64,000 bases of DNA. It comes from Microcoleus sp. (lineage in GTDB: Bacteria; Cyanobacteriota; Cyanobacteriia; Cyanobacteriales; Microcoleaceae). Below the pieces are notes generated by a model. The model did not search any database, had not been told where the DNA came from, and was given only the letters and a program-made list of their open reading frames with translations. The stretch covers positions 224,001-288,000 of the forward strand of contig JAYFMW010000003.1 in NCBI GenBank assembly GCA_042408215.1. Direction: 5' to 3'. The translations under genes were made by a program, and so were the position numbers. This document shows positions 45,012 to 62,456 of the stretch, in pieces (positions within the stretch are counted from its first letter, which is position 1; every line of letters begins with the position of its first letter).

Positions 45012-46443
45012 ATGCAACTAGCAGAAAGACATATCATTAAATCCACCGAGAATCGTTTTGTTGAAATTGACGGATTAGCCTTTAAATCCAAAAATCTCTA
45101 CAACGTCGCTAACTACGTTATTCGTCAGAGTTTTGTCTATGGATGGGGTTATATCAATTACAACGAAATGAACCGTTTGATGAAGTCTCATCAAGCATAC
45201 AAGGACTTACCAGCCAAGGTAAGTCAACAAATATTGATGATATTGGACAAGAATTGGCAAGCTTTTTTTGAAGCCGTTAAAGCTTACAATATTGAGCCAA
45301 CAAAATTTACTGGTAGCCCAAAGTTGCCCAAGTACAAAGATCAAGTTAAGGGTCGGAATATTCTCGTCTATACGATTCAGGCGATTAGTAGCAAGCAACT
45401 AAAGAAAGGAATTATCCATCTGTCCGGGACTAACATCTTGATTAAGACCCTGGTAAAACCAGAGCAAATTTGTCAAGTTAGACTGGTGCCAAAATGTGAT
45501 TCTTATGTAATCGAGGTAATTTATAATGAGCCGGAGTCCACCATTGATGAAAATCAGAAAGAATTAGTAGCTAGTATTGATTTAGGATTGAATAATTTAG
45601 TGGCGCTAACTTCAAATCAGCCGGGATTTGTCCCTTTATTGATTAACGGGCGACCACTGAAATCAATTAATCAATTTTACAATAAGCGTGCAGCTACAAT
45701 CTCGATTGAAAGAGAGTCGCAAAACATCGCGTAGAATTCAGCGATTGACTCGTTGTAGAAACCAAAAAATCGATAATTACTTACACCAGGCCAGTCGTTC
45801 TATCATCAATATTTTAAGATCGGGAAAGATTGGGACTCTGGTAATAGGGAAAAATGTGCAATGGAAAAACGAGATTAATTTGGGGAAACAAACTAATCAG
45901 AACTTCGTAACTATTCCTCATGCTCGATTTATTGAGATGTTGGAGTATAAGGCTGCATTGGTTGGAATAAAAGTGATTGTACAGGAAGAGTCATATACCT
46001 CTCAATCCAGTTTCCTAAATCTAGACCCGATCCCTGTTTATGGGAATAGTGATACCCAAAAAAAGGTATTCAGTGGCCAACGAATTAAGAGAGGATTGTA
46101 CAAAACATCCTGCGGTCAATTAATTAATGCCGATGTTAATGGGTCTTACAATATTATGCGAAAAGCAATCCCAAATGCCTTGTGCAATGGGATAGAGAGC
46201 TGCGTAGTTCAGCCGAGGCGGTTGAATCCGCTCGAAGTGAAAGCGAAAGGGGAGGGATTCAACGCCTCCCATGGCACTGTAATAGATGACTATACTTTTA
46301 CCAGCTATTCTGCCTGGAGGATTGTTAAAATCATCGACTCAGAATTGGCAATATTTCTTATACGGCACGCTGAGTCAACAATCCCCAGACGAAAAGTACA
46401 ACGATCGCGCCGACAACAGCAAAAGCAATACTGGGTAGGGTAA
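45012..46443 (+). pseudogene. tnpB: TnpB (second clade) split by a frameshift near 45690
   Basis: SKNLYN..NY, SIDLGLNN in the first ORF; YLHQAS, QEESYTS, INADVNGSYNI in the second ORF. Confidence 0.82.
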
Positions 46444-48570: not shown

Positions 48571-49506
48571 AAGAACTTCTTTGACAAAAGGGCGATGCTG
48601 CCACGATTTAAGTCAAAGCACAGTAGGCAATCCATTGGCTATCCTCAAAACGTCAAGTTTGATGGCGACTAGATCAATTTACCTAAAATTGGATTAGTAC
48701 ATTGTCGGCTTCACCGAAGCTTTGAGGGTGATATCAAAACTGTCACTGTGTCTCGAAATCCTGATGGAAAATATTTTGTTTCCGTTCTAGTTGACGATGG
48801 CAAAGCTAATCTGGGGTCAGTAGCAGTAAACAAAGCTGTTGGCATTGATGTTGGGCTGACCCACTTTGCTATTACCAGTGATGGCTCAAAGTTTGACAAT
48901 CCTCGCTATTTTGTGAAGCGTCAGCGTAATCTAAAAAGGAAACAGCACAAGCTATCTCGTAAAAAGAAAGGTAGTCAAAATCGCAAAAAAGCAAGATTGG
49001 CGGTGGCGAAAGTTCACTCCAAAACTGCTAGGTGTCGTGAAGATTTTCTGCACAAGCTATCCCGCAAGATAGTAAACGAAAACCAAGTTATTGCCGTAGA
49101 AAATCTTAATGTCAAGGGTATGGTCAAAAATCATAATCTAGCTAATTGCTTTAGCGATGTTGGTTGGGGTATGTTCTACACCATGCTCAAATATAAGGCT
49201 GAAAACGAAGGGAAAACTTATATCGAGATCGATCGGTTTTTCCCTAGCTCGAAGACCTGCCATGTATGCCTAAATCGAGTCGATCATCTCACTCTTGATG
49301 TAAGGGCATGGACTTGTAAGCATTGCGGTACTCACCATGACCGCGATGTAAATGCAGCGATCAATATTAGAAATGAAGCCTTGCGGATTCTGGCGTTAGG
49401 AACTAGCGCTTCTGCCTGGGTCGGGGATGTAAGTCGATCTGGCAAAACTTCGGTTTTGTTGGACGCTATCCCCAATGAATCAGGAAGCCACCGCTGTACC
49501 GCCTAA
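48571..49506 (+). pseudogene. tnpB: 5'-truncated tnpB with an in-frame stop near 48670
   Basis: Reads KNFFDKRAMLPRFKSKH...QSIGYPQNVK..*...; GIDVG, VENL, DRDVNAA retained; about 88 N-terminal codons missing relative to the 25198 copy. Confidence 0.85.
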
Positions 49507-54371: not shown

Positions 54372-55088
54372 GTGAAATTTAAAATCTTGGCAACTGTAAC
54401 GGCAAGTTTAGCTTTGTTTTGGTATTCGGCTCCTGTTCTCGCTCAAAATGCTGCTCATGTTAGGCAGTTGCTGGAAACTAAGGAGTGTGAGGGTTGTGAT
54501 TTGAGAAATGCTGATTTGTTTAAGGCTAGCTTGTATAGAGCTAAGTTGAAAGGGGCTGATTTAAGCGGAGCCAATCTTTATGAAGCTAATTTGATAGAAG
54601 CGGATTTAACTGATGCTAATTTGTCGAATGCTAATTTAGTCAATGCTGATTTGTATGGTGCTGATTTGGATAGTGCTAATCTGCGAAGTGCGAATTTGTC
54701 TAATGCTTTTTTGAGTAGAGCAAATATGACGATGGCTGACCTGCGTGGTGCTAAACTTTTTTCGGCTAATTTGGGTGAATCTTATTTGCTGAATGCTAAT
54801 TTGTCGAAGGCGGATTTGAGGCGATCGCTTTTGTTTAGAGTGAATTTAAGTCGAGCGAATTTAACTGGGGCGGATTTGTCTTTTGCGGATGTGCGCGATA
54901 CGAATTTGCAGAATGCTATTTTGTCTAATACTAGGCTACCAAAAGCTCAATTGAGTGGGACAAATATAGAGGCGGTGAGGGATTTCCGTCAGGCTGATTT
55001 GGAACGTGCCAATTTGCGGGGTACGAATTTGGGGCCGGTGGTTTGTGTGACGACTCATTATCCTTATTGTGTTTTGAATTTGGAGTGA
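54372..55088 (+). CDS. Secreted pentapeptide repeat protein
   Basis: Signal peptide, QLLETKEC..CDL, A(D/N)Lxx repeats; GTG start inferred. Confidence 0.92.
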   Translation: MKFKILATVTASLALFWYSAPVLAQNAAHVRQLLETKECEGCDLRNADLFKASLYRAKLKGADLSGANLYEANLIEADLTDANLSNANLVNADLYGADLDSANLRSANLSNAFLSRANMTMADLRGAKLFSANLGESYLLNANLSKADLRRSLLFRVNLSRANLTGADLSFADVRDTNLQNAILSNTRLPKAQLSGTNIEAVRDFRQADLERANLRGTNLGPVVCVTTHYPYCVLNLE

Positions 55089-55352
55089 TCGCTTGTAGGG
55101 TGCGTCAGTCGCCATAATTTGGGCTGGTAAGGGAGATTTTGAGGGGCTGACGCACCTGACGTTTAGGTATGAAGTTCGATCGCACTGGCAATTCTGTAGG
55201 GGAAGTGCGATCGCTCTTTGATGCACTATTCGTGTGGTTGTGGTAAAATATAAGTACCCCAGCCAAATTAGTGCAAGTCAGATAAATTTTGATGGCGGTC
55301 TAATTTTTATAGATCTATTAACTAATAAAATATTGGATATTTAGGTAAAAAA

Positions 55353-56555
55353 ATGGTTCAAAAAATTGGCATTCAAGGATTGTATTATATTGTTCATTTT
55401 AACAATATCCTTTCTATTTTAGAAAAGGGTATTATGTGTCACGAGTCGATCGAAAGTGAGGGATTGAATAACACGCCTATATACAATAGTCAAATAGTTG
55501 ATAGTCGTTCTAGAAGAATAGTTTATGACAATAAATCTTTGTGGAGTTTTGCTAATCTTTACTTTCAACCACGCAATGCAATGCTTTACTCAGTTATCAA
55601 TAAAACAGCCGTTCATCAAGTGGCTATTATCTGCATCAAAAAGAAAATATTAGATAGAAAAAAGATTTTTATTACTACAGGTAATGCTGCCAGTTCCGAT
55701 TCCCAAATCATTCCCATTGAGGAAAGTGAAAAGTTTTTACCTCAAATCAGGAAGGAAATAGATAAAACATGGTGGAATAATGAAGATGGGTCAAAAAGAA
55801 AAATGATGGCTGAATGCTTGGTTCCAGAACGGATTGCGCCAAGTTATATTCAAATGATTTATGTTGCTTGCGATCGCGCCAGAGAAGATTTAGGAAAACT
55901 GCTGCTTGCTTGTGACAAGCCTAGTATTTCTGAGATCCCTATTACTGTTGAACCTGAAAGATTTTTTCAACCAGTCTGGAGTGCTAGGCTTACTTCCAAG
56001 GTTTCTCTGATTCGTGGAGATATGTTTTTTTCAAGAATGCAAACTCTTACTGTTAGCGTTAATTGTGTGGGTGTCATGGGCAAAGGATTGGCATCAACAG
56101 CAAAAGATCGTTTTCCTGATGTATATGTCAGGTATGAAAAAGTGTGCAAAGATAAGAGTTTGCAGATAGGAAAACCATACTTATACAAACGTGAGTCATC
56201 GGTCACAGAACAATTAGCAGATCATACATTATTGCCTTCAGACAATGTTAACGACAACTATCAAACATGGTTTTTCTTGTTTCCTACAAAGAATCACTGG
56301 AGAAATAATTCAACTATTCTTGATATTGAGAATGGCTTGCAGTGGCTTGCTGAAAACTACAAAAATGAAGGGATAAAGTCCTTAGCAATCCCGGCACTTG
56401 GATGCGGACTTGGTGGTTTAGATTGGCGAGACGTTGGTCCTCTGATGTGTAAGTATTTGACTTCTATGGATATTCCTGTAGCCATATATTTACCATCCGA
56501 AGGAAAAATTTCAGATGAGTTAGTGTCACGCGATTTTTTGCTGTCTCAAGTATAG
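55353..56555 (+). CDS. DarT (DUF4433) DNA ADP-ribosyltransferase fused to a DarG-type macrodomain
   Basis: N-terminal YIVH..NI.SIL..G, LYFQPRNAMLY, GNAAS, MAECLVP; C-terminal GDMF, VNCVGVMGKGLA, FPTK.HWR, IPALGCGLGGLDW. Confidence 0.88.
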   Translation: MVQKIGIQGLYYIVHFNNILSILEKGIMCHESIESEGLNNTPIYNSQIVDSRSRRIVYDNKSLWSFANLYFQPRNAMLYSVINKTAVHQVAIICIKKKILDRKKIFITTGNAASSDSQIIPIEESEKFLPQIRKEIDKTWWNNEDGSKRKMMAECLVPERIAPSYIQMIYVACDRAREDLGKLLLACDKPSISEIPITVEPERFFQPVWSARLTSKVSLIRGDMFFSRMQTLTVSVNCVGVMGKGLASTAKDRFPDVYVRYEKVCKDKSLQIGKPYLYKRESSVTEQLADHTLLPSDNVNDNYQTWFFLFPTKNHWRNNSTILDIENGLQWLAENYKNEGIKSLAIPALGCGLGGLDWRDVGPLMCKYLTSMDIPVAIYLPSEGKISDELVSRDFLLSQV

Positions 56556-56681
56556 TTTTGAATTTTCATTCTTCAGGCTTAGGAATATGAATATGTTCAT
56601 GCTTCCTTTCAGTGAATTTACATAAAAATTGCCGCCAACAACATCAGTCTATTGCTAGTGGCAAAAAACTGATTAACAGTC

Positions 56682-60746: not shown

Positions 60747-61553
60747 CTAAATTGTATCAGGATCGATGTTTAATTCTCGCAATTTAGCGGCCAGGCGATC
60801 GGCTCGTTGTTGAGCCAATTCTTTCTGCTGACGTTCTGAATCAGCTCGTTGTTGAGCCAATTCTTTCTGCTGACGTTCTGAATCAGCTCGTTGCATTTCC
60901 CTTTCCGTTCGTTGTTGAGCAAATTCTTTTTGCTGACGTTCTGAATCAGCCACCTCTTCAGGAGTAGGAACTAGCTCTCCATAATCGGTAAAAAATCGCA
61001 GTTTATTCTGATGAATTCCCAAATACAACTCCAGCTCGTCACTCCACAAATATCCTTGAGAATTCGGTGCTAGTGCTTGGTATTTACCATTCACCAAATG
61101 AAATCCCGCAAACTCTAACGTATAGGGATCGAACCAAAAATAGTCTGGGGTACGAAATGTGTCTTGATAGAGTTTTTTCTTAAATTCGCGATCGGTATTA
61201 GCTGTTGTCGGTGACAGCATTTCTACAATCACATTAGGGTATTTTCCATCTTCTTCCCAGACTACCCAGCTTTTCCGAGGTTTGCGTTCGGTTCCCAGTA
61301 CCACAAAAAAGTCTGGGCCTCGAAAGTCTTGCGATTTACGTTGATTCTGACTGTAATAAATCGTGAGATTGCCGGCAACATAAAAGTCGTTTCTATCTCG
61401 CCACAGCCAATCTAGACATTGGAGGAGTAAAATTATTTGTCGCAGATGCAGTTCAGTTTCCAAGGGAGGTTCGTCACTGTATAAATCGCCTTTCGGAAAG
61501 ATAACACGTTCTGGGATGTCTTGGGAAGTCGCTAATTCTGGGATGACGGACAT
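60747..61553 (-). CDS. Uma2 family endonuclease (copy 1)
   Basis: GPDFFVV, PNVIVEMLS..T...D...KK.LY, YFWFDP; C-terminal coiled-coil repeats. Confidence 0.92.
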   Translation of the reverse strand: MSVIPELATSQDIPERVIFPKGDLYSDEPPLETELHLRQIILLLQCLDWLWRDRNDFYVAGNLTIYYSQNQRKSQDFRGPDFFVVLGTERKPRKSWVVWEEDGKYPNVIVEMLSPTTANTDREFKKKLYQDTFRTPDYFWFDPYTLEFAGFHLVNGKYQALAPNSQGYLWSDELELYLGIHQNKLRFFTDYGELVPTPEEVADSERQQKEFAQQRTEREMQRADSERQQKELAQQRADSERQQKELAQQRADRLAAKLRELNIDPDTI

Positions 61554-61649: not shown

Positions 61650-62456
61650 CTAAATTGTATCAGGATCGATGTTTAATTCTCGCAATTTAGCGGCCAGGCG
61701 ATCGGCTCGTTGTTGAGCCAATTCTTTCTGCTGACGTTCTGAATCAGCTCGTTGTTGAGCTAATTCTTTTTGCTGACGTTCTGAATCAGCTCGTTGCATT
61801 TCCCTTTCCGCTCGTTGTTGAGCAAATTCTTTTTGCTGACGTTCTGAATCAGCCACCTCTTCAGGAGTAGGAACTAGCTCTCCATAATCGGTAAAAAATC
61901 GCAGTTTATTCTGATGAATTCCCAAATACAACTCCAGCTCGTCACTCCACAAATATCCTTGAGAATTCGGTGCTAGTGCTTGGTATTTACCATTCACCAA
62001 ATGAAATCCCGCAAACTCTAACGTATAGGGATCGAACCAAAAATAGTCTGGGGTACGAAATGTGTCTTGATAGAGTTTTTTCTTAAATTCGCGATCGGTA
62101 TTAGCCGTTGTCGGTGACAGCATTTCTACAATCACATTAGGGTATTTTCCATCTTCTTCCCAGACTACCCAGCTTTTCCGAGGTTTGCGTTCGGTTCCCA
62201 GTACCACAAAAAAGTCTGGGCCTCGAAAGTCTTGCGATTTACGTTGATTCTGACTGTAATAAATCGTGAGATTGCCGGCAACATAAAAGTCGTTTCTATC
62301 TCGCCACAGCCAATCTAGACATTGGAGGAGTAAAATTATTTGTCGCAGATGCAGTTCAGTTTCCAAGGGAGGTTCGTCACTGTATAAATCGCCTTTCGGA
62401 AAGATAACACGTTCTGGGATGTCTTGGGAAGTCGCTAATTCTGGGATGACGGACAT
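61650..62456 (-). CDS. Uma2 family endonuclease (copy 2)
   Basis: Identical to copy 1 except one residue (T/A in RTERE/RAERE). Confidence 0.92.
   Translation of the reverse strand: MSVIPELATSQDIPERVIFPKGDLYSDEPPLETELHLRQIILLLQCLDWLWRDRNDFYVAGNLTIYYSQNQRKSQDFRGPDFFVVLGTERKPRKSWVVWEEDGKYPNVIVEMLSPTTANTDREFKKKLYQDTFRTPDYFWFDPYTLEFAGFHLVNGKYQALAPNSQGYLWSDELELYLGIHQNKLRFFTDYGELVPTPEEVADSERQQKEFAQQRAEREMQRADSERQQKELAQQRADSERQQKELAQQRADRLAAKLRELNIDPDTI

Follow-up and report, generated by a model that had tools for sequence, protein, structure and literature searches.

An intact one-gene fusion of DarT and a DarG-type macrodomain in Microcoleus has a crystallised Thermosipho relative and belongs to a widespread family

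In a Microcoleus sp. genome, one gene at positions 55353..56555 (+) of the window (the whole stretch of 64,000 nucleotides analysed here) encodes a 400-aa protein in which a DarT ADP-ribosyltransferase domain is followed by a DarG/TARG1-type macrodomain. Sequence comparisons indicate that this fusion is real, intact and probably active. Its architecture is not new, as a relative at 53% identity has been crystallised. We give about even chances to the reading that it is a one-gene DarTG2 whose balance between writing and erasing would tip during infection without antitoxin loss, and which would act as an accessory defence against phage or invading DNA.

The ORF contains no internal stop, and the closest in-frame stop on its 5' side, at 55326, rules out an N-terminal extension. 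Pfam profiles place DarT (PF14487) at residues 11-205 (55383..55967, +; E 1e-38), in agreement with the alignment to Thermus DarT, and Macro (PF01661) at residues 236-362 (E 9e-10), both above cut-off, which bears out the earlier note's reading of two domains in one ORF. The full macrodomain spans residues 214-382 (55992..56498, +), as judged from residues aligned with Taq DarG and from a structure match, and the motifs named in that note are in place (MAECLVP at 152-158, VNCVGVMGKG at 236-245, FPTK at 310-313). PADLOC profiles also recognise both halves (DarT, E 2e-29; DarG, E 7e-50). The PADLOC DarG match is limited to profile positions 3-149 of 329, so the DarG C-terminal domain is absent from the fusion, as had been proposed. 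Both NCBIfam equivalogs score below cut-off (DarT 76.7 of 150 bits; DarG 161.5 of 250), the DarG match being restricted to the first ~150 profile positions. Relative to solved two-gene DarG macrodomains, there is an insertion at about residues 279-304 (56187..56264, +), of which the first helix is conserved and followed by a variable loop of low model confidence. The C-terminal tail (residues 383-400; 56499..56552, +) is conserved, with F395 and L396 kept and covarying pairs at low alignment depth. The AlphaFold2 model of this single-copy gene has a pLDDT of 91 and a pTM of 0.87.

The claim that neither stop nor frameshift separates the domains is confirmed by contigs from all four independent runs (four studies), which cross the boundary open, with 0 indels and 0 stops. 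These open junctions, together with full-length homologs, rule out a sequencing artefact merging two genes. One contig (X9) spans the whole gene stretch and differs from the window by six substitutions in the gene (at 55447, 55655, 55752, 55837, 56260 and 56316), all residue-changing and none creating a stop, a number too small to separate relaxed from diversifying selection. An internal start yielding a free macrodomain was rejected, as Met224 lies just 2 nt after GGAG and the product would be missing the first strand as well as the Gly-Asp motif. A promoter scan was uninformative, its 2 sites being fewer than the 5.7 that chance alone would give. No partner gene was detected, as the earlier note had stated: the fusion gene is the only DarT match in the genome, the other of two Macro matches is an unlinked 176-aa ORF on a different contig, and searches gave no canonical DarG C-terminal domain, either in this genome or among 99 fusion loci. 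Neither a trans-encoded DarG C-terminal domain nor a second darT was found in the genome with the queries used.

The best match among solved structures is PDB 7OMU, 'Thermosipho africanus DarTG in complex with ADP-ribose', released on 2021-06-23 (E 1e-127 over residues 9-398, 53-55% identity). This entry is also the top fold match of the AlphaFold model (Z 49.2, TM 0.88/0.94, rmsd 1.8 A over 375 residues from 6 to 398), a fit that may partly derive from 7OMU itself, the sequence match being independent of the model. Domain order, length, macrodomain insertion and C-terminal tail are shared, and we found no architectural difference, although the host here is a cyanobacterium. The crystallised protein carries Ala at the position of Glu154, the ART catalytic glutamate (codon 55812..55814, +), whereas a Thermosipho locus (L024), identical over the compared stretch, has Glu152, which identifies the construct from its sequence as a catalytic mutant. 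As such a replacement is practice for active DarT enzymes, we count it toward an active writer in the fusion. The novelty implied by the earlier note is thus lost, since a natural full-length homolog is already characterised at the structural level and a large family surrounds it; prior characterisation of the fusion was one of the refuting outcomes that the note itself had named. We take 7OMU to belong to Schuller et al. 2021 (Nature 596:597), and this article or its supplements may already report the activity of the Thermosipho fusion. Our literature search, with most subscription papers beyond its reach, found no functional study of a natural DarT-DarG fusion, and none is described in the available parts of PMC9411070, PMC11481870, PMC8883491, PMC9967889, PMC11543638, PMC7003065, PMC11825919, PMC12945103, PMC5179494, PMC11125620, PMC9503650 and PMC13309987.

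Residues H15, R52, Y70, M77, N111 and E154 align with H13, R51, Y71, M78, H119 and E160 of Thermus DarT (7OMV), whose roles are described in PMC9967889 and PMC11543638. The catalytic Glu, Arg, His, Tyr and Met of DarT2 are all present (E154, R52, H15, Y70 and M77), the Arg52 codon (55506..55508, +) being aligned with the catalytic Arg51. In the macrodomain, N237, K244, K313, H315, W316 and G352 correspond to N22, K29, K80, H82, W83 and G119 of Taq DarG, residues tested in PMC5179494; the pocket is complete, including the catalytic Lys (Lys313, codon 56289..56291, +, aligned with Lys80). Among the best 120 homologs, E154 and N237 are found in 120 and R52, K313 and W316 in 119 each, the R52 and K313 misses being gaps in fragments. 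Both the Glu and the Lys are kept in the 88 intact loci (of 99), four of which are missing Arg at the R52 column, a point that we count against the one-gene DarTG2 reading. In the nine unsaturated of 10 computed pairs of relatives (an eleventh, L169/L170, being left out), DarT has a dN/dS of 0.12-0.31 and the macrodomain one of 0.00-0.20, which places both halves, by this comparison, under purifying selection. Degeneration of one half is ruled out by residue conservation and by dN/dS below 1 in both.

Asn111 occupies the position of the thymine-binding His119 of Thermus DarT. Asn at this position is given as a mark of guanine-specific DarT1 in PMC11543638. Guanine specificity was nevertheless dropped, since the mycobacterial DarT2 7YK3, which is of the thymidine type, also carries Asn. 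Given this precedent, Tyr70 and the absence of the DarT1 Asp (the latter two being DarT2 traits), thymidine is the likelier target base. More broadly, the fusion resembles two-gene DarTG2 (Thermus aquaticus, EPEC, M. tuberculosis, V. cholerae) in its DarT fold with the H-Y-E plus Arg set (7OMY, Z 22.6) and in its DarG macrodomain with the catalytic Lys (5M3E, Z 23.8). It differs in being a single polypeptide from one ORF instead of a two-gene operon, in lacking the DarT-binding DarG C-terminal domain, in falling under the NCBIfam equivalog cut-offs on its own branch of the DarT tree, and in having Asn for Thermus His119, as has 7YK3. DarTG1 (DarT1 plus NADAR, guanine-specific) shares the DarT fold and the Asn in the base-binding position, but there the partner is NADAR instead of a macrodomain, and the fusion keeps Tyr70 (DarT1 has Ser for Tyr71) with no Asp two residues past the Arg (R52-S-R54).

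The earlier note had raised the question of how widespread the fusion is, and among the best matches the answer is that it is widespread. In a homolog search in which 3828 of 6359 candidates were scored, 118 of the best 120 homologs align over 92% or more of the query, and 56 of the best 150 clusters (50% identity) contain both domains. Ninety-seven genome loci (best matches only) fall in 20 named phyla and comprise 90 bacterial, 5 archaeal and 2 unassigned loci, with 39 in Chloroflexota and 19 in Cyanobacteriota. In a FastTree phylogeny of 97 DarT domains (a subsample made up of 25 fused loci drawn at random and of further, chosen rows), 59 core fusions cluster with 7 solo representatives (support 82), and 17 two-gene DarT fall outside this group. 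The gene studied here clusters with Microcoleaceae and Okeania copies (support 99), and the next step out adds Thermosipho in a set of 11 that includes L024 (support 98). Another fourteen representatives depart from this layout through longer linkers or a different arrangement, the macrodomain coming first in two, which suggests that DarT and macrodomain may have been fused more than once. The literature searched contained no account of this breadth over bacteria and archaea in several apparently separate layouts. The reversed order is found in P0171 and P0202, and long linkers without Pfam domain in P0159, P0162, P0163, P0165, P0166, P0176 and P0177. GNAT acetyltransferase domains are joined to macrodomains of the fusion's type in P0199 and P0213.

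Thirty-one of the best 120 homologs (for example P0002, P0013 and P0016) carry an N-terminal extension of 66-122 aa. It contains a basic, Gly-rich motif, and we take its strand-helix pattern to be like that of a CopG/ribbon-helix-helix regulator; 18 extended proteins scanned gave no Pfam match for it. Met is retained at the short-form start site in 29 of the 31, which hints at two start sites. The extension was not found in the genome of the fusion gene studied here, and the N-extended form had no locus in the genomes searched and only Atlas leads below 0.9. Metagenomes gave stand-alone extension homologs only; those at L222:1584-1904 and L223:4001-4309 adjoin plasmid-replication-like genes. 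As for mobile elements, no fusion was seen among the 15 of 22 plasmid records listed, which all matched at 33% identity or less and in two pieces, and a close fusion was absent among the phage matches listed. One full-length fusion was found in 80 viral-contig loci. It lies in L083:1-5173, where a methyltransferase and what is probably a restriction subunit come after it.

In the window, the fusion gene stands between a pentapeptide-repeat gene, itself located after pgk, and an 89-aa ORF preceding a Ser/Thr kinase gene. The segment that varies among relatives extends approximately over 55117..56621, its left edge falling at 55090-55117 and its right edge at 56621-56647 depending on the relative. 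Gene GC is 36.6% (GC3 31%), lower than in the contigs (44-46%) and in seven neighbouring genes (41-50%), and the earlier note was thus right to call the ORF AT-rich. An 86-bp upstream element (55196..55281, +), which holds the GCGATCGC palindrome at 55207, also precedes unrelated cargo genes in relatives and is the probable promoter region of the slot. The copy is an AT-rich accessory gene that stands alone in a slot of changing content; it lies outside any defence island, which counts against the defence reading.

This slot is cassette-like, with pieces at 55027-55089, 55196-55281 and 56622-56652 of the window and counterparts in relatives at L072:955-2780, L224:2810-4678, L225:177-379 and L226:105-518. 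In G009 and G021, the same upstream element and right edge surround an unrelated AT-rich gene pair (~332-345 aa and 171 aa), which had no Pfam or PADLOC match in G009 and is a candidate for a defence module of a new type; in G012 they surround an 87-aa ORF. G021 and G013 carry a 63-bp copy of the 3' end of the pentapeptide gene together with the element at another site, near toxin-antitoxin-like genes. Elsewhere in the window, two tandem, near-identical 268-aa ORFs with a repeated coiled-coil tail (60747-61553 and 61650-62456) are presumably of the Uma2-like endonuclease family, and transposase-associated ORFs at 45012-46443 (seemingly split over two frames) and 48748-49506 are presumably TnpB-like.

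Occupation of the slot is irregular. In 12 relatives, it is empty in 3, holds another AT-rich gene pair in 1 and two response regulators in 8. With a threshold of E 1e-40, matches are found in 2 of 79 congeners, namely the genome itself and G069, whose copy consists of residues 138-400 only, so that just one of the 79 has the gene intact. Nine of 36 congeners give weaker matches, of the two-gene type, one being confirmed as DarT plus full DarG. The Microcoleus record L166 has, in the same slot, a copy lacking window positions 55282-55767, with the first 138 codons gone and the macrodomain left. The gene is found near pgk in three other cyanobacterial loci, with a dS about that of pgk; among them are two more distant ones with the fusion, where dS is near saturation. 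Old residence with many losses is thus as possible as recent insertion, a point that we count against the defence reading.

Beyond the window, fusion GC is more than 2 points under that of the flanks in 67 of 82 loci, and no conserved partner emerged among 118 neighbours of 39 loci, the majority being housekeeping genes. Neighbours of fusion loci include HigB, HEPN/nucleotidyltransferase, PIN and Fic genes. Genes resembling type III restriction-modification (R-M) systems occur in 10 of 99 fusion loci and adjoin the fusion in eight (L002, L018, L020, L021, L027, L036, L083 and L209). The background is 3 places in the 7.4-Mb genome of the fusion gene only, and six of the ten R-M loci supplied queries; the enrichment is thus suggestive only. 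This adjacency, for which we found no mention in the literature searched, echoes the two-gene darTG reported within type I R-M operons (PMC5179494). That some 90% of the loci have no type III R-M neighbour counts against defence.

These distributions also bear on a reading without any role against phage, in which low-level writing and erasing at host ssDNA, for example at origins, would slow growth under stress. Mycobacterial DarTG marks oriC and tunes growth, according to the review PMC8883491; a fixed 1:1 stoichiometry would suit such a cycle, and the position near pgk is common to four cyanobacterial loci. We nonetheless regard host marking as rather unlikely, because the gene is absent from 77 of 79 congeners, patchy across 20 phyla with no conserved context, and AT-rich relative to its hosts.

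The earlier note had also proposed activation by proteolysis, a host or phage protease cutting between the domains or destroying the macrodomain and thus freeing DarT. An exposed, variable, low-confidence loop at 297-302 in the macrodomain insertion would offer a site, and antitoxin loss is a proposed trigger of two-gene systems in PMC11481870. The linker does not look cleavable: it is short, varies little in length, equals the DarT domain in conservation and has high model confidence, and 190 of 233 sequences share an identical spacing there. The top covarying pairs connect the C-terminal tail with DarT (I197-I386, I7-D394, Q89-K385) and tie the insertion to helix 125-136 of DarT (S125-K266, K134-V284). 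Although the covariation is noisy at a depth of ~147 effective sequences, the tail seems to pack back on the DarT domain, so that a single cut would leave the halves together. A freed macrodomain would moreover still be able to reverse the mark in trans, on the evidence of PMC5179494. Fixed spacing and covariation favour a rigid unit over a cleavable one, and we hold proteolytic release to be quite improbable.

A further possibility is that the writer is weak or dormant, the useful part being the eraser, a macrodomain that would serve immunity or repair by countering thymidine ADP-ribosylation of foreign origin. The macrodomain is indeed the better conserved half (mean column conservation of 0.71, against 0.54 for DarT), and has the lower dN/dS. 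Broken copies point both ways. Among the 11 non-intact copies in 99 loci, 3 are cut by contig ends, 1 is ambiguous and 7 are interpretable. DarT is lost in five of these seven, a count that we place on the side of the one-gene DarTG2 reading; of the five, L036 and L166 persist as macrodomain-only remnants, and L169, L170 and L172 have early stops removing both halves. In the two copies with damaged macrodomains, L014 has a stop at residue 358 and L034 a transposase gene after residue 290, and DarT motifs are intact in both, which argues against a strictly lethal writer unless these copies are silent or assembly errors. On the other hand, Glu154 is invariant and R52, Y70, M77 and N111 nearly so over 43-91% identity, and DarT dN/dS is well below 1. 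A dormant writer is thus, in our view, a poor prospect, no better placed than proteolytic release. Finally, that the gene is a selfish or stabilising module, persisting by addiction or by guarding adjacent R-M genes, as proposed for two-gene darTG in R-M operons (PMC5179494), finds an echo in the toxin-antitoxin-type neighbours but is very unlikely, as a fused toxin and antidote decay jointly (early stops remove both) and the fusion is scarce in the plasmid and viral records.

The one-gene DarTG2 reading would work as follows. The N-terminal domain would use NAD+ to ADP-ribosylate thymidine in ssDNA, and the tethered macrodomain would hydrolyse the mark; the residues for both activities are present, and the activities themselves are those expected from the family. 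As the fusion has the macrodomain only, the host cell would be protected mainly by enzymatic reversal, and not by the sequestration that a DarG C-terminal domain provides. In two-gene systems, DarG blocks DarT both by reversing the mark and through its C-terminal binding domain, as reported in PMC7003065. The Taq DarG macrodomain on its own rescues DarT toxicity and requires K80 (PMC5179494), and that of EPEC likewise rescues (PMC7003065). A catalytically dead Taq macrodomain gave no DarT inhibition in PMC5179494; dead macrodomain proteins inhibit in vitro according to PMC9411070. The model and the weak covariation suggest that the two halves form a rigid unit, clamped by the C-terminal tail and the macrodomain insertion and not meant to part. 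During infection, a surge of phage ssDNA might shift the balance to writing or, alternatively, a phage product might block the macrodomain or shift the interface, and accumulating marks would stall replication of the phage.

Fused toxin-antitoxin phage sensors, of which we take CapRel to be the type, also carry toxin and antitoxin on a single chain, so that activation by differential decay is excluded; they differ in that the antidote here is a predicted product-reversing enzyme, and in the fusion we found neither a sensing surface nor a phage trigger. The concept of such sensors is presented in PMC11481870. The same 2024 paper attributes phage restriction by two-gene DarTG to DarT catalysis and states that the trigger during infection is undetermined, even for two-gene systems. 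A more specific proposal, which we advance tentatively and at somewhat under even chances, is that a phage product or ssDNA acting at the interface between the insertion and the DarT 125-136 helix, and at the C-terminal clamp, would turn the protein into a net writer. The family would then be a distinct one-gene anti-phage class, with a cyanobacterial sub-branch in which a DNA-binding regulator has been fused at the N-terminus and the old start Met kept, giving a self-regulating toxin-antidote-repressor with possibly two starts.

The inference of the earlier note that a 1:1 chain cannot be triggered by differential antitoxin loss is sound: a one-chain DarTG excludes this trigger by design. If the fusion still stops phage, it would thus provide direct support for activation by substrate or ligand, which makes it well suited to showing, free of that confounder, what activates DarTG.
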